Both the position numbers and the translations under genes were made by a program. This document shows positions 11,579 to 64,000 of a DNA stretch of 64,000 bases, one piece after another. The stretch lies in the IMG/VR virus record IMGVR_UViG_3300017788_001394, positions 1-64,000 of that record. One strand, written 5' to 3'. Within the stretch, counting starts at the first letter, position 1, and every line of letters begins with the position of its first letter. The DNA comes from a virus. The notes below the pieces were generated by a model. It had not been told where the DNA came from. It saw nothing but the letters and a program-made list of their open reading frames with translations, and made no database searches.

Positions 11579-11902
11579 ATGCCCGTTAGATTAGTTTTTA
11601 CTGCAGTTTACAAAAATGTTCAAGATATGTACACTGTGAAAATATATACAGAAAGTGTTAGTCAGTTGTACAACGAGTTTGTAGATGCCGGAAAAATTAC
11701 AAACCTATTAGAAGAAAAATCTATAGAAACATTAACAAAAACAATCACTATTACTTTCTTGAATCAAAGTGCATGGGATGAATACAGTGCTCGGTTAGAT
11801 ACTTTAAGAAGTCAAACCGAGTTAAACACGCTACAGCTCGGCGGAGCTGATATATCTGATATGTATTTAGAAGATGATACTGGTAACAGAACTCCAATTT
11901 AA
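11579..11902 (+). CDS. hypothetical protein, first gene of the enzyme island
   Basis: TATAAATA at 11544-11551 and AAGGAG SD. Confidence 0.75.
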   Translation: MPVRLVFTAVYKNVQDMYTVKIYTESVSQLYNEFVDAGKITNLLEEKSIETLTKTITITFLNQSAWDEYSARLDTLRSQTELNTLQLGGADISDMYLEDDTGNRTPI

Positions 11903-11919
11903 AAATAAGGTTAATTAAA

Positions 11920-13416
11920 TTGAATCCTTTTTACACATTAATCCCAAGCAACAAAATTGCCTTGAGTGATATTAACGAACAAATTACATATAAAGACCTA
12001 ATAAATGATGCTATAGAAATTAGGGATTGGCTAATCAACAATGGTTACAAACACGGTCATAGAATTGGCATTGCTGGAAAAAACTGTGTCAGAACTTACA
12101 AATATTTCCTTGCTGCACAGATGTTATCATCTGCAGTTGGCCTGCGTTCGGATTTTAAAGGTAACGATTGGAACTACAAAATACCCGCAGCAAATATAAA
12201 TGCAGTCATCGATTTAGGAAAAAACAGCGATGACCTGAAATTACACCATTATCATTATGAAAAATCTACCGAATGCCCCAAGGAATATGCTGTTTATTTT
12301 AGCTCTGGCACCACTAGTAACAAATGGGGATCTCCGCAAGCAACTCCAATGGTGTGGGACGTAGACGATTACAATTGGGGCATGGGAATCGATATTGTTA
12401 ATTACAACCGTGCAGTAATAAATCCATATTATAGAGAATCAGACGATAACATACAAATCCAAGCAATGGGTTCTTGGATGGGGTTTGGACAAGAAAGCAC
12501 TACACTTAATTTAATTAAACATGGTCATACAGTATTAGTTAGTGAGCATAATCCGTCTGAATGGGACTTACTTGTCGAACGTTACAAGCCTACGTGGACT
12601 GTTATGTTTCCGATGATTGCATCAAAACTAATGGAATCGAATACTGGCGGCGGCCATCCGATTAAATGTGTAGAGATGGCAGGTGCAAAGCCTACAATTA
12701 AGCAAACAGAAGAGTTTAAAAAATTCTTTAATTGTAATTATTTCACATCACATTACGGAACTTCGCAGTCAGGTAACAGTTTTCACAGTGCAGGCAACGG
12801 CGAAAATCTACAGCATATAGGAAAGCCTTGCTTAGGGTTTGTTCATGCATATGGAAAAGACTTTGTCCGAATTGGCAAACATGGAACATTAGAAATCAAA
12901 TGGCATGGGAGTCCTCCACATTATTGTAATCAAGACGGCTACTACGATACATGTGACATTGTCAGAATTAAGGATGACGGTGACTGGGAATTTTTGGGGC
13001 GTTCAAATGAGATGCTCATGATTCGCGGCGGTAGTAAATTACAAGCCCCTAGTATCGAAGATAGACTGATAGAAAATCCAAAAATTAAAGAAGTATACAT
13101 CTATCCAATACCCGAAAGCGATATTCAAAATCCAACTTTAGAAATTTCAAGAGAAGAGATCGACGCCGGGTCATTGTATCAAGTGCCTGGATGCTTATAT
13201 TACGGCGACTTAACTATAAAAGAAATAGAAGAATATTGCAAAGAACAGTTGCCAATATATCACAGGCCTGTTCAAATATTTAAACTAAAAAACAAACTAT
13301 CATCATTTGTCGAAAGTAATGTATGGAAAGTCCGTCGCTTGTCAATGCACGACACACTAAAAGAAAATGGTACCAGCTGGTGTGAAGATTATACACTGCA
13401 AACTACATATGATTAA
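11920..13416 (+). CDS. divergent adenylate-forming (ANL/AMP-binding) enzyme
   Basis: YFSSGTTS P-loop, HYGTSQ, YYDTCD, FLGR...IRGG, C-terminal KVRR. Confidence 0.8.
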   Translation: MNPFYTLIPSNKIALSDINEQITYKDLINDAIEIRDWLINNGYKHGHRIGIAGKNCVRTYKYFLAAQMLSSAVGLRSDFKGNDWNYKIPAANINAVIDLGKNSDDLKLHHYHYEKSTECPKEYAVYFSSGTTSNKWGSPQATPMVWDVDDYNWGMGIDIVNYNRAVINPYYRESDDNIQIQAMGSWMGFGQESTTLNLIKHGHTVLVSEHNPSEWDLLVERYKPTWTVMFPMIASKLMESNTGGGHPIKCVEMAGAKPTIKQTEEFKKFFNCNYFTSHYGTSQSGNSFHSAGNGENLQHIGKPCLGFVHAYGKDFVRIGKHGTLEIKWHGSPPHYCNQDGYYDTCDIVRIKDDGDWEFLGRSNEMLMIRGGSKLQAPSIEDRLIENPKIKEVYIYPIPESDIQNPTLEISREEIDAGSLYQVPGCLYYGDLTIKEIEEYCKEQLPIYHRPVQIFKLKNKLSSFVESNVWKVRRLSMHDTLKENGTSWCEDYTLQTTYD

Positions 13417-13424
13417 ATAGTCGA

Positions 13425-61302: not shown

Positions 61303-61304
61303 AC

Positions 61305-62162
61305 ATGAAAGAAAGAAAATATATAAATTGGCGCAGCGGTATTAAACGTAGAATTTTAATAATAGGCGATCAAAATCTATTAGGTGACTACAGTTTAGAA
61401 GGTAAACTCGTAGGTTATAAAAGCTGGGCATGGCATTTAAAAAAACAACTTAACGAAGATCATCATATCTATACTTTACCGTTACCTAATTGCAGTTTTA
61501 CACAAGTAAATGCAATATTAGAATATCTCAGAGATAGTGGTCTTCTTGATATCTTTACCCATTGTATTGTCAGTTTACCTGCAGATAACAGTCAAACATT
61601 GTTTACATCAGACGCTGACGGTTATTTTAACGCACTGTCCACTTTTATATTAACCGATCGTTTCTTAAAATATGATTTATATGATGGCAAAGAACTGTAT
61701 GATAGATTCTTAGAACCACATATTATGTCAACAAGTGCATCATATTCTAAAAACAATTTAGATAATAGTGTTAGTTATTCGGTTTTTAACAAACATTTAT
61801 TCTCTGTAAATTACGCCATGTTATTAGATATATTGAAGTCGAGTAATGTTGTTCCAATATTATTTGATCTTGAATCAAGGCCAGTTGCACAATATCAACA
61901 AATTCACACAATAAGAAAACGAGAAGATTTAAATCTATACCCCAACAATTCGTATGCATTTACCGAACCCGACGGTGTATACTGGTCAGCTATAGAGATG
62001 ATAAAGTGCATCGATTTTGATAGAGACTTTAATATCAACAATAACAACACATTCACCGCCGACGACCAATGGGTTCTTGCTAAAACATTGTACAAAGTTT
62101 TAGCTGATAAACTAATACTTGATTGGATAATAGAGGATAAAAAAAAAAAAGGTAAATCATAA
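61305..62162 (+). CDS. degenerate SGNH-like protein
   Basis: IIGDQ, SWAWHL; paralog of the next gene but lacking Ser and His. Confidence 0.5.
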   Translation: MKERKYINWRSGIKRRILIIGDQNLLGDYSLEGKLVGYKSWAWHLKKQLNEDHHIYTLPLPNCSFTQVNAILEYLRDSGLLDIFTHCIVSLPADNSQTLFTSDADGYFNALSTFILTDRFLKYDLYDGKELYDRFLEPHIMSTSASYSKNNLDNSVSYSVFNKHLFSVNYAMLLDILKSSNVVPILFDLESRPVAQYQQIHTIRKREDLNLYPNNSYAFTEPDGVYWSAIEMIKCIDFDRDFNINNNNTFTADDQWVLAKTLYKVLADKLILDWIIEDKKKKGKS

Positions 62163-62972
62163 ATGAAAGATAAAGTATTGTGTATAGGATGCAGCCATTT
62201 AGCAGGTGCATACGATAAAGATGATATAGTCGTTAGCAACGAGTCATGGGCTTGGCATTTATGGAAACGTAGAGGAAAGAATGAAATTTTTTATACGTTG
62301 CCAAGCCCAGGTCAAGGTCTGATGCAGTATGGTGCATTAATAGAAACTCTAAAAAATAAAAACAAACTAAGTCAATTTAAGTATGCCATAATACAGTTAA
62401 CATCCGAACCTAGAATTAATTGGTATGGCGGGTTACCTCAAAATTATTATTTTTCAATATTGCCACACTTTGTTGATAACAATGAAAATGGGTTTAACGA
62501 TGGACAAACAATGTATACTAAGTATGCAAGAAGTATTGTATTATCATCTGACTTTAGAAAAATGTACGAAATACACGAAGGAAAATTTGTTTCTCCGGAT
62601 TCTAAAAATGCTTGGTTGGATATTAGCGAACAGCTTTATGAGTCATTTAATAAAAGTGTACTGTCGCAATCATTATTTCCTATCTATATGAAATATATTA
62701 CTGATACGTTAAAAGAACACAATATAACGCCAATCATATTCGATTGGTGGGGTAAAACGGTCGAACAATGGCAATTGATTGATAATCTGAATATACATGA
62801 TAATATATTGTTTGTCAGGAAATCTATTAAACAGATTCTAATAGATAACAATTTGTGGAACAGAGAAGAGCAAAGTATCGGTGGTCACTTTAACAGTATT
62901 CAAAATAAAGCTGTTACGAAATTTTTGCATAAAGAAATTATTGAAAAAGGTTTAATGCCTGACTATGAATGA
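62163..62972 (+). CDS. SGNH hydrolase-like protein
   Basis: CIGCSH, SWAWHL, PGQG, GGHFN. Confidence 0.6.
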   Translation: MKDKVLCIGCSHLAGAYDKDDIVVSNESWAWHLWKRRGKNEIFYTLPSPGQGLMQYGALIETLKNKNKLSQFKYAIIQLTSEPRINWYGGLPQNYYFSILPHFVDNNENGFNDGQTMYTKYARSIVLSSDFRKMYEIHEGKFVSPDSKNAWLDISEQLYESFNKSVLSQSLFPIYMKYITDTLKEHNITPIIFDWWGKTVEQWQLIDNLNIHDNILFVRKSIKQILIDNNLWNREEQSIGGHFNSIQNKAVTKFLHKEIIEKGLMPDYE

Positions 62973-64000
62973 ATCCTTTTGTGTTGCACCATGGCTACAC
63001 ATGCATGTAGAACCAACTGGCGATGTTCAACTGTGTTGTGCAAGCAATTGGAAACATGATTTCAACCGTAGCTTAGGAAACTTAAACGATGCATCTCCGT
63101 TAGAAATATGGAACAATGAACAATATAGATATGTAAGAGCAAACATGATTAAAGGCAATATGTTAAAAAAATATTGCAGTCCGTGTTATCTTAGAGAAAA
63201 TGGTGCAGTTAATCAAACCGAACGTCAACGACTTAATAAGGAATTTCCTTTAGGTTATGAACTAGCTAAAGAAACAAATGCAGATGGCAGTTTAAACAAG
63301 TTAGACATACGATATCTCGACATACGTTTTAATAATTTATGTAATTTAAAATGCAGGACATGTGGCCCAGACTGGAGCACAAGTTGGGCAAACGAGATGG
63401 GTATTGAAAAACCATTGCACTATAATAACTCCTGGAAAAAACTAATACCGTATCTGGGCAATTTAGAAAAAGTATATTTTGCAGGAGGTGAGCCAATGAT
63501 GACCGCAGAGCATTATGATTTCTTAGAGTTACTATTAGATACAAACCCTAATGTAGAATTACTATACACTAGTAATTTTACAAGATTGGAACTCAAGGGC
63601 AGACATGTAATGGACTATTGGCCAAGGTTTAAACTTGTAAATGCAGTAGCTAGTATTGACCATTGCAATGAATACGCAAGTTATGTCAGAACTGGAAGTG
63701 ATTATAACGTAGTCAAGAATAACTTTTTAGAAATAAAAAATCAAAATTTACACAATGTTAGAGCAGGTGTAACTAGTGTACTAAGTTTGTATAATATTAC
63801 TAAAATAGGTAGCTTCATAACACAGTTGTTTGAAGATAAAATTTTAGATAATATGGATCAAATTGTTTTCAACCTATTAGTAAACCCTAATTATCAAAAC
63901 GCTTTGATTATGCCAGAAGAATCGTTGCCTACGGCATTGAATAGTATCGAATTATGTGAACAGTATTTGCATAATTTAGTAATAGATTCATCTAAGTTAA
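62965..64000 (+). CDS. N-terminal twitch-domain radical SAM protein (partial, not in ORF track)
   Basis: ATG 62965 MNESFCVAPW...LCC...CSPC; NLCNLKCRTC; FAGGEPM; frame open to window end. Confidence 0.9.
   Translation, partial: MNESFCVAPWLHMHVEPTGDVQLCCASNWKHDFNRSLGNLNDASPLEIWNNEQYRYVRANMIKGNMLKKYCSPCYLRENGAVNQTERQRLNKEFPLGYELAKETNADGSLNKLDIRYLDIRFNNLCNLKCRTCGPDWSTSWANEMGIEKPLHYNNSWKKLIPYLGNLEKVYFAGGEPMMTAEHYDFLELLLDTNPNVELLYTSNFTRLELKGRHVMDYWPRFKLVNAVASIDHCNEYASYVRTGSDYNVVKNNFLEIKNQNLHNVRAGVTSVLSLYNITKIGSFITQLFEDKILDNMDQIVFNLLVNPNYQNALIMPEESLPTALNSIELCEQYLHNLVIDSSKL

Follow-up and report, generated by a model that had tools for sequence, protein, structure and literature searches.

The closest described counterparts of the gene island considered here are the hypervariable regions termed host recognition cluster (HRC) in pelagimyophages and cyanomyophages, which combine GT8 glycosyltransferase and lipopolysaccharide (LPS)-like genes with radical S-adenosylmethionine (SAM) cassettes beside the tail fibre genes; the radical SAM family was not analysed in that study, and modification of the host O-chain was proposed without a test (Zaragoza-Solas et al., 2020, PMC7029224). 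Besides, 12 radical SAM genes were noted in the genome of an aquatic, T4-like environmental virus, in a paper that mentions them in passing as Fe-S-related auxiliary genes, with no family, context or function (Nishimura et al., 2017, PMC5332604). Our subject is an island of roughly 67 kb, dominated by radical SAM enzymes, in the IMG/VR virus record IMGVR_UViG_3300017788_001394. The window that we analysed, 64,000 nucleotides long, comprises bases 1-64000 of this linear record of 103,292 bp, and all coordinates above 64000 are contig coordinates beyond the window. The source phage is an uncultured, giant freshwater virus with a contractile tail (myovirus). For the "moraphage" lineage, core glycosyltransferases and no radical SAM enzymes are mentioned (PMC12619734).

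By analogy with these systems, the island is best read as an unusually large version of an HRC in a jumbo phage. More specifically, we favour, with a probability of about 0.38, a hypervariable phage-encoded machine that builds and radically edits a glycan, with the virion as acceptor, while the broader claim that the chemistry of the island concerns a glycan is rather probable. A glycan role is the reading with the best support, given transferases of GT8-like and GT-A type, a cassette of kinase and nucleotidyltransferase, a carbamoyltransferase and the polysaccharide loci in which the dominant radical SAM family often occurs in bacteria, and carbohydrate chemistry is additionally favoured by amidino and amino transfer and a BtrN-like twitch domain. 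The virion is preferred as acceptor because of a fixed link to the fibre operon, a Tyr/Gly-rich loop next door and the placement of the sequence TATAAATA. An earlier note, made from the sequence of the window, had proposed decoration of virion proteins or glycans, or of the host surface; the glycan role is the part of this that our data support best, with virion and host surface both as candidate targets.

A six-frame PF04055 search found 19 radical SAM open reading frames (ORFs) on the contig, 13 of them in the window, exactly as counted in the earlier note, and six beyond it. The CxxxCxxC motif is kept in all 19 proteins. Fourteen of them are joined by all-against-all BLASTP into a single family of paralogs, at 20-32% full-length identity, and this family corresponds to NCBIfam NF033640, N_Twi_rSAM: the six paralogs that were scanned score 227-407 bits (cut-off 170), and the remaining eight are linked by full-length BLASTP. 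Apart from two core genes listed further below, the radical SAM genes are:

14638-15478, plus strand: split radical SAM, with a C-terminal-like piece at 14638-14913 and the core at 14885-15478 (BLASTP against the 39155-40234 protein; CxxxCxxC)
23314-24426, minus strand: radical SAM, not N_Twi, paralog of 32838-33737 (PF04055, E 8e-15)
25497-26639, minus strand: N_Twi radical SAM (paralog network, alignment A1)
28778-29932, minus strand: N_Twi radical SAM (NF033640, 239.8 bits, cut-off 170)
31606-32850, minus strand: N_Twi radical SAM with a CH variant of the CC motif (NF033640, 227 bits)
32838-33737, minus strand: radical SAM, not N_Twi (PF04055, E 1.4e-10)
33721-35091, minus strand: N_Twi radical SAM (paralog family; 30% identical to 35088-36488)
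35088-36488, minus strand: N_Twi radical SAM (NF033640, 407 bits)
37299-38444, minus strand: N_Twi radical SAM (Pfam, paralog network, alignment A1)
39155-40234, minus strand: radical SAM, not N_Twi (PF04055, E 1.7e-9)
51762-52664, minus strand: radical SAM with C-terminal SPASM domain (Pfam)
60133-61302, plus strand: N_Twi radical SAM (SPASM residues 6-74, radical SAM core 118-291)
62965-64000, plus strand: N_Twi radical SAM crossing the window end, the gene ending at contig 64137 (NF033640, 301 bits)
contig 64134-65366, 65468-66853, 68880-70103 and 70096-71298, plus strand: four N_Twi genes beyond the window

In the N_Twi proteins a SPASM-type/twitch region at residues ~6-80 precedes the radical SAM core at ~120-300 (Pfam), and the cysteines C13, C32, C73 and C76, together with C127/C131/C134, are invariant in 14/14 members (alignment A1), as are the motifs SSxW and GGEP. 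The solved structure to which the N-terminal segment shows the best alignment is BtrN, in its C-terminal twitch domain (E 1.4e-5), and on this analogy a carbohydrate, as for BtrN, is the probable substrate class. The core itself retrieves generic radical SAM enzymes only (SkfB, viperin, MoaA and BlsE, with SkfB at E 1.4e-10). No paper and no characterised member was found for NF033640 in the literature, and at least 6,961 relatives of the family, almost all unnamed, are present in public data at E 1e-10. Close relatives of the radical SAM protein at contig 68880-70103 are encoded on contigs of 305-332 kb.

For a phylogenetic view, 207 family members collected with a local family hidden Markov model (HMM; E 1e-20, >70% model coverage) were placed in a FastTree phylogeny, in which 27 viral clades are interleaved with 28 bacterial clades and 13 of the 14 paralogs appear in viral clades. 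Since most paralogs of the source phage fall into separate, well-supported orthogroups common to other phages, they are old, individually conserved genes and not recent duplicates. Each of the 14 probably catalyses a different transformation.

Two further details concern the radical SAM genes. In the split gene at 14638-15478, a 91-aa ORF similar to the C-terminal part of the 39155-40234 protein precedes a 197-aa core, so that the order is swapped; judged from its sequence, the gene may encode an enzyme in two pieces with the twitch first, or may have decayed. The radical SAM type at 23314-24426 recurs beside N_Twi genes in 5 viral loci and in 11-12 bacterial loci of metagenome-assembled genomes (MAGs), and between this gene and an SDR-like gene two ORFs of 61 and 78 aa are located (24530-24951, minus strand), the first of which resembles the start of a B12-binding radical SAM domain and may be a gene remnant.

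Directly behind the fibre genes lies a conserved core of the island. It consists of the following genes, given with the adjacent fibre-module gene:

contig 71315-74364, minus strand: two core N_Twi radical SAM genes, beyond the window
contig 74364-75356, minus strand: GT-A-fold transferase (predicted fold, DGD motif)
contig 75319-76326, minus strand: unknown protein
contig 76289-78060, minus strand: two GT8-like transferases (glycogenin match)
contig 78466-79752, minus strand: Tyr/Gly-rich fibre-module protein

Among 13 IMG/VR loci encoding close relatives of one N_Twi paralog, the core is present in 12-13, and in four contigs it is syntenic, with the co-oriented order fibre-like protein, small helical protein, two ~290-aa paralogs, unknown protein, ~330-aa protein and two long N_Twi enzymes. 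In the source phage it lies on the same strand as, and contiguous with, the fibre genes. The GT8-like pair matches glycogenin by profile (E 5e-6, over the N-terminal 108 positions), with D119 of a DxD-like motif near-invariant and the C-terminal H278 invariant. For the GT-A family, to which a gene in the window also belongs (47867-48580; the earlier note lists glycosyltransferase-like proteins for the window), the model reaches a pLDDT of 85, and the DGD motif is invariant; VIA assigns the GT-A fold with Z 10.4 over 141 residues at a root-mean-square deviation of 3.1 to B4GALNT1 and other GT-A enzymes, with nucleotidyltransferases scoring nearly as well. Neither the GT-A-family profile (A3) nor the core unknown protein at contig 75319-76326 matched any PDB sequence. 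The motif TATAAATA also bears on the fibre link: five of its 11 copies on the contig lie in intergenic sequence, which makes up 3.3% of the contig, and two island genes have a copy 28 nt upstream, one fibre-module gene a copy 7 nt upstream.

Directly beside the core, the protein at contig 78466-79752 contains a loop with 18 Tyr in 60 residues (GYGYGYGY...SGYYG), and Tyr/Gly-rich loops also occur in the two closest relatives, one shorter and one built of GGYS repeats. The closest relative of the GT8-like pair with a solved structure is glycogenin, an enzyme that glycosylates tyrosine. One could imagine a post-translational diversification of the virion, in which the GT8-like enzymes glycosylate Tyr or Ser of fibre loops and an exchangeable N_Twi set edits the sugars or loop residues, one position per enzyme; we consider this elaboration unlikely. 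If it were true, swapping of cassettes, and not mutation of fibre genes, would alter the phage surface as hosts and predators meet it. The same loops invite the idea that the radical SAM enzymes modify proteins directly, so that Tyr/Gly/Ser-rich fibre loops are cross-linked, spliced or edited in the manner of maturases of ribosomally synthesised peptides with post-translational modifications (RiPPs), with the glycosyltransferases glycosylating the same loops. SPASM/twitch radical SAM enzymes often act on peptides, the N_Twi profile matches SkfB, and a Tyr/Ser/Gly-rich protein of 225 aa terminates the cassette of K566, an unrelated Vibrio phage with four N_Twi-like genes; this last point counts for the favoured virion reading as well. 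Against direct protein editing speaks that no RRE/PqqD domain, leader peptide, protease or small Cys-rich ORF was detected in the Pfam scans (ORFs of at least 90 aa), that the loop is missing in distant relatives which keep the core, and that the bacterial context, where informative, points to polysaccharide; moreover, small ORFs in the gaps contain no Cys/Ser/Thr-rich core of a RiPP cluster. Taken together, we regard direct protein editing as decidedly improbable, slightly more so than the loop diversification just described.

The setting of the island is that of a contractile-tailed phage genome. CheckV gives the 103,292-bp record a completeness of 28%, and the genome size is therefore estimated at roughly 370 kb. 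The island spans 11.5 to ~78.4 kb of the contig, bounded at both ends, between the thymidylate synthase gene and the tail-fibre genes, and thus continues past the window, as the earlier note had stated. The flanking genes are:

1266-2246, plus strand: 5'-3' exonuclease (RNase H/FEN type; PF02739, E 4.6e-21)
5246-6340, plus strand: MoxR-like AAA ATPase (Pfam)
6760-7971, plus strand: DUF2201 VWA/metallopeptidase protein (Pfam)
9514-9990, plus strand: dihydrofolate reductase (DHFR; Pfam, E 4e-34)
9975-10880, plus strand: thymidylate synthase (ThyA; Pfam, E 5e-101)
10900-11493, plus strand: HNH/NUMOD3 homing-endonuclease-like gene at the left island edge (Pfam)
contig 78054-103104, mostly minus strand: fibre and baseplate module beyond the window (Pfam scans)
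contig 81303-92381, minus strand: 3692-aa protein with CBM_5_12 module, beyond the window (Pfam)

On the right, from ~78.4 kb to the contig end, this module encodes fibre-like, gp25-like, gp6-like (1180 aa) and VgrG-like baseplate proteins. Pfam recovered the phage core genes that the earlier note had named on the left (RNase H-type exonuclease, MoxR/VWA, DHFR, ThyA), and its assumption of a viral origin holds on the strength of these nucleotide-metabolism genes, the baseplate and fibre genes on the right and the IMG/VR record. A chimeric assembly, which would have undone the whole case, is ruled out since independent contigs share both island junctions. The 3692-aa protein has a 58-residue segment in common with the gp6-like protein downstream and counterparts at 27-45% identity in four related contigs. 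In total, 109 ORFs were called on the contig, and nearly all of at least 90 aa were scanned against Pfam; the window has a G+C content of 36% and contains no tRNA genes. No Rfam family reached the gathering score in the window, including a 156-nt gap at 45670-45825 upstream of the symporter operon described below.

Comparison with related phages shows how such an island varies. Five parent contigs of the related loci, all fragments of phages estimated at ~350 kb, hold 4-13 N_Twi members above the cut-off, and the distance between thyA and the fibres measures ~13 kb and ~50 kb in two relatives and ~67 kb here. The site of the island is fixed and its content expandable, with variable radical SAM and tailoring cassettes added between the core and thyA. 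Near-identical parts of the region were found on contigs from river, freshwater (lake-study) and wastewater metagenomes (no RNA data set is listed among the public runs), and one cassette beyond the window is lacking in some of these natural variants:

contig 66835-68905 (L001 2835-4905): methyltransferase-like and kinase-like cassette

Contigs of three other freshwater or wastewater runs join across this ~2-kb segment (L001 2846-4899 twice and 2848-4899 once), which makes it a natural presence/absence polymorphism inside the island. This variability is what would be expected if the island were not one system but a dump site for unrelated auxiliary genes at a recombination-tolerant spot, with only the small core sharing a function. 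Such a view would also accommodate the size range of 13-67 kb among relatives, the many genes that are specific to the source phage, the HNH endonuclease at the island edge and the split and truncated genes. However, the added genes belong overwhelmingly to few tailoring families, unlike accessory genes taken from phages at random; each N_Twi paralog has its own orthogroup common to several phages with intact catalytic residues, and the operons are tightly packed with overlapping starts and stops. We therefore give the dump site a low probability.

Outside the radical SAM enzymes, the window contains tailoring, activation and transport genes:

11920-13416, plus strand: ANL (AMP-binding) ligase (PF00501, E 2.4e-15)
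14159-14641 (plus strand) and 18412-18837, 21052-21759, 28089-28781 and 29929-30681 (minus strand): ORFs with an HxD...H motif only
15542-17454, plus strand: importer of OpuAC-type substrate-binding protein and ABC permease (PF04069, E 8e-36; PF00528, E 1e-26; 6 hydrophobic segments)
17426-18415, plus strand: aldo/keto reductase (PF00248, E 1e-61)
18827-19543, minus strand: second ANL ligase, truncated (PF00501, E 1.8e-13)
20201-21055, minus strand: pyridoxal phosphate (PLP) fold-type-I enzyme, paralog of 30678-31598 (BLASTP E 8e-20; in alignment A5, predicted structure searched)
21752-22777, minus strand: amidinotransferase-like, paralog of 40525-41799 (BLASTP E 2e-30; GxHC(V/L)TLD motif conserved)
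26682-28027, minus strand: two nitroreductase-family paralogs (PF00881; 41% identical to each other)
30678-31598, minus strand: PLP fold-type-I enzyme (AlphaFold pLDDT 89; Foldseek E 8e-9 to aminotransferases)
36485-37324, minus strand: QueC-like PP-loop ATPase between two N_Twi genes (PF06508, 22.3 bits; SGGFDS and C-terminal CxxC pair)
40525-41799, plus strand: amidinotransferase-like (PDB matches HsvA, SxtG, StrB1 and AGAT, E 7e-8 to 8e-6, catalytic-Cys region)
42266-42694, minus strand: stand-alone ATE_C domain (aminoacyl-tRNA-protein transferase C-terminal; PF04377, 27.3 bits, cut-off 25)
43452-44930, minus strand: sodium:solute symporter (SSF; PF00474, E 1.5e-21; 10 hydrophobic segments)
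47867-48580, minus strand: GT-A-fold transferase, paralog of the core gene at contig 74364-75356 (BLASTP E 8e-30; family fold)
48687-50219, minus strand: carbamoyltransferase of NodU/CmcH type (PF16861, E 1e-51; PF02543, E 1.7e-33)
50747-51760, minus strand: class I/II aminotransferase, part of the activation cassette 50747-54429 (Pfam)
52661-53695, minus strand: nucleotidyltransferase-HAD fusion, activation cassette (GxGxR..PK motif at the start; C-terminal HAD)
53692-54429, minus strand: kinase-like protein, activation cassette (HGDxxxxN motif)
55751-56500, minus strand: SAM-dependent methyltransferase (PF08241, E 2.7e-9)
57127-57771, minus strand: HAD phosphatase (PF13419, E 1.7e-19)
58927-59589, plus strand: 2-oxoglutarate (2OG)-Fe(II)-oxygenase-like (PF13640, E 6.5e-4, below the cut-off)

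This inventory agrees in most parts with the earlier note, which had named two amidinotransferases (PDB E ~1e-7, with the catalytic Cys region kept in both copies), a carbamoyltransferase, three PLP enzymes (the aminotransferase found by Pfam, the other two by fold), two nitroreductases, two ANL ligases, a QueC-like ATPase, an ATE-like domain and two uptake systems. Its statement that no nonribosomal peptide synthetase or polyketide synthase, carrier protein or RiPP scaffold is present likewise stood in the Pfam scans, in which no RRE domain was found either. Other calls survived in part: all six ORFs counted as 2OG-Fe(II) enzymes contain HxD...H, with one weak Pfam match among them; one of four methyltransferases matches PF08241, the other three showing motifs; the sulfotransferase-like proteins carry N-terminal P-loop-like motifs and nothing beyond these; and among candidates for the NTP-transferase-like proteins is the nucleotidyltransferase-HAD fusion, whose nucleotidyltransferase part is recognised by motif only. 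Six-frame searches with 2OG-FeII_Oxy_3 and ADI models found nothing by a route that is too insensitive, as hmmscan and PDB searches give weak matches to the same genes, and a six-frame PhyH search gave no match even in controls and is uninformative. By Pfam, the window encodes two HAD proteins.

Some of these genes merit a remark of their own. The glycine-betaine-type binding protein and permease at 15542-17454 have no adjacent ATPase gene, so that a host ATPase would have to be borrowed. In the PLP pair (20201 and 30678), the SxSK and HIDGA motifs are conserved, and the sequence profile of the family gave only insignificant matches, the fold being needed for its assignment. The 30678-31598 protein has 337 detected homologs, mostly unnamed, of which those with a name at source are "hypothetical", and one listed cluster has methyltransferase Pfam domains; the best 120 of the 337 are 64-94% identical, many on contigs of 100-225 kb. 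Going by the predicted fold, it represents a widespread, unannotated phage enzyme family.

The kinase/nucleotidyltransferase-HAD/aminotransferase/carbamoyltransferase/GT-A operon looks, by its sequence assignments, typical of activated-sugar pathways. Some of the same enzymes could instead serve the synthesis of one or more small molecules, aminoglycoside-like or nucleoside-derived, used in the infected cell or released at lysis. There is a family-level likeness to aminoglycoside pathways in the BtrN-like twitch domain, the StrB1-like amidinotransferases and the TobZ/NodU-type carbamoyltransferase; aminotransferases, kinases, phosphatases, ANL ligases, importers and nitroreductases are present as well, and the radical SAM cores weakly resemble MoaA and viperin. 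All these families are broad superfamilies, however, Pfam detected neither a cyclitol or scaffold synthase (2-deoxy-scyllo-inosose or inositol-phosphate synthase) nor a gene for export or resistance on the 103 kb, and the invariable link between core and fibres would be left unexplained, so that we attach only a slim chance to a small-molecule product. Still far less credible is that glycosylation or 7-deazaguanine-type chemistry serves to hypermodify the DNA of the phage. DNA is among the molecules that phage glycosyltransferases can decorate (cited in PMC12619734), the gene of a QueC-like PP-loop protein is flanked by radical SAM genes and the island adjoins nucleotide-metabolism genes; yet ThyA is of the canonical type (312 bits to solved structures of this enzyme) and paired with DHFR, no hydroxymethylase, DpdA-type transglycosylase or base kinase was found in the Pfam scans of the fragment, and 19 radical SAM enzymes are without precedent in DNA modification pathways. 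For both alternatives, which had already been listed in the earlier note, we see nothing specific in favour.

The occurrence of N_Twi proteins in bacteria and cultured phages adds context. All 78 loci of genome collections that contain the family come from MAGs; five of them, with markers of the phage core, probably represent phage DNA that was binned wrongly. On large bacterial contigs, N_Twi genes have among their neighbours GT2, GT4, an ABC-2 permease with ATPase (Wzm/Wzt type), PMT_2, PhyH arrays and carbamoyltransferases, and 12 of 30 full-size bacterial loci contain at least one polysaccharide-assembly marker (GT2, GT4, Wzm/Wzt-type ABC-2 or PMT_2; local HMMs), with PhyH arrays in 2 loci and carbamoyltransferase homologs in 8-9. 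HMMs built from the bacterial PhyH, GT2 and GT4 neighbours matched no phage gene, and GT2 (PF00535) was not found in five related phage records. One N_Twi array in Bdellovibrionota adjoins an integrase. In the MAG "Elusimicrobia bin-0981", at least 13 separate contigs encode close N_Twi relatives; these may stem from a jumbo phage that was binned wrongly or from an organism that has dozens of N_Twi copies. Among cultured phages, the Vibrio phages KVP40 and K566 have 2-4 N_Twi-like genes. The KVP40 record contains, at 132879-137744 and near nadV, a QueC-like gene, a PF04095 protein, two N_Twi-like radical SAM genes and a HAD protein; its QueC-like gene near N_Twi-like genes echoes the arrangement at 36485-37324 in the window.

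This context also supports the possibility that the same chemistry is directed at the host envelope, where it would modify lipid-linked O-antigen, LPS core or capsule precursors at the cytoplasmic face, with the product exported by host machinery and serving superinfection exclusion or blocking the re-adsorption of progeny. GT8 includes LPS-core transferases. Bacterial N_Twi genes occur in ABC-transporter-dependent polysaccharide loci, where tailoring is all cytoplasmic, the lipid-linked precursors of the host could be modified by phage enzymes while in the cytoplasm, and the K566 cassette adjoins a PagP-like lipid A gene. In the published HRC, no glycosyltransferase family is commoner than GT8, and close genomes differ in their radical SAM cassettes (PMC7029224). 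Nevertheless, the 103 kb lack genes for an initiating transferase, a flippase, a polymerase, a ligase or an exporter, and no Wzx/Wzy or Wzm/Wzt assembly-export locus was found in this fragment (28% of the genome); the core directly adjoins late structural genes, not early ones, and has their orientation; and surface conversion is typical of temperate phages, while no integrase or lysogeny gene was seen in the fragment. On balance, we hold the host envelope to be a doubtful target, albeit one to be taken seriously.

Returning to a glycan-editing machine that acts on the virion, several observations weigh against it and explain why our confidence remains below one half. The fragment covers ~28% of the genome, leaving 72% unseen. 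Both glycosyltransferase calls are remote, with no Pfam match at E 0.01 and Foldseek TM-scores of ~0.3, and neither core glycosyltransferase family was found in KVP40 or K566. Bdellovibrionota carry 3-8 N_Twi genes plus one other radical SAM gene alone among housekeeping genes, with no glycosyltransferase nearby. The Tyr/Gly-rich loop is absent in more distant relatives that keep the core. Comparison of whole contigs shows many island genes to be specific to the source phage, and the 2-kb cassette is present or absent in nature; the island may be a mosaic of independent cassettes instead of a single pathway. The late-type promoters of the earlier note fared unevenly: over the whole window TATAAATA shows no enrichment (9 copies, with 11.5 expected), and what stands is the intergenic position of five of the 11 copies, two of them 28 nt ahead of island genes. 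Finally, the published interpretation of the HRC is host O-chain modification (PMC7029224).

Should the virion nevertheless be the acceptor, the pathway might run as follows. The importers would bring a precursor into the cell, where the kinase and the nucleotidyltransferase-HAD fusion would activate it. PLP enzymes, amidinotransferases, the carbamoyltransferase, methyltransferases and oxygenase-like proteins would tailor the sugars, which soluble glycosyltransferases would attach in the cytoplasm. Each of the 14 N_Twi enzymes would abstract hydrogen at a different sugar position, with oxidation, epimerisation or deoxygenation as possible outcome by analogy with BtrN-type twitch enzymes. The chemistry is cytoplasmic, since apart from the ABC importer permease and the SSF symporter no polytopic membrane protein is encoded in the 103 kb. 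The most likely acceptors would be virion components, namely the neighbouring fibre and baseplate proteins including Tyr/Gly/Ser-rich loops. If this holds, giant aquatic phages devote up to a fifth of their genome to radical chemistry on sugars, and one phage locus could expose a whole set of new carbohydrate-editing reactions. The answer would settle whether the HRCs of abundant aquatic phages decorate the virion or disguise the host, and since cultured Vibrio phages (KVP40, and K566-like phages where in culture) carry small radical SAM cassettes, the question is accessible at the bench.

In comparison with known systems, neither the kind of island nor the enzyme family is new: an HRC was described in 2020 and a genome with 12 radical SAM genes in 2017, and the family is catalogued as NF033640. 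The term "uncharacterised" used in the earlier note is therefore justified insofar as there is no known reaction for the main family, and too strong for the system. New are the scale (67 kb with 19 radical SAM enzymes, of which 14 are paralogs of a single family), the setting in a jumbo phage and the definition of a conserved glycosyltransferase/radical SAM core behind the fibres with cassette-wise expansion. The 14 island proteins share with NF033640 the Cys4 twitch followed by the CxxxCxxC core; with 4-13 members in related contigs and 2-4 in cultured Vibrio phages, the 14 diverged paralogs mark the extreme end of what is seen elsewhere. BtrN, a 2-deoxy-scyllo-inosamine dehydrogenase, resembles the N_Twi auxiliary domain in the alignment of its twitch (E 1.4e-5) and in a similar four-Cys spacing, but there the twitch is C-terminal instead of N-terminal, and the similarity of the cores is at superfamily level only. 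Virion glycosylation systems of mycobacteriophages (capsid and tail tube), chloroviruses and mimivirus likewise combine soluble, virus-encoded glycosyltransferases with neighbouring structural genes, and the Che8 and PBCV-1 A64R transferases are among the many to which the predicted GT-A fold is similar. These systems contain no radical SAM enzymes and a much smaller set of tailoring enzymes, and for the present island virion glycosylation is a prediction. As for the HRC, both are large hypervariable islands of aquatic T4-like myoviruses with syntenic flanks, joined to tail-fibre genes, in which fibre genes go along with GT8 or GT8-like and LPS-like genes. In both, the radical SAM cassettes vary from one close relative to the next and show under-recruitment in metagenomes. 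The differences lie in genome size (~370 kb here in comparison to 140-200 kb), in island size (67 kb in comparison to a mean of 45 kb) and in position, which is between VrlC and gp14 in the HRC and between thyA and the fibres here, where no match to gp14 or VrlC was identified in the 103-kb fragment, the 3692-aa protein not having been compared with VrlC. Above all, the island described here is dominated by its 19 radical SAM enzymes.

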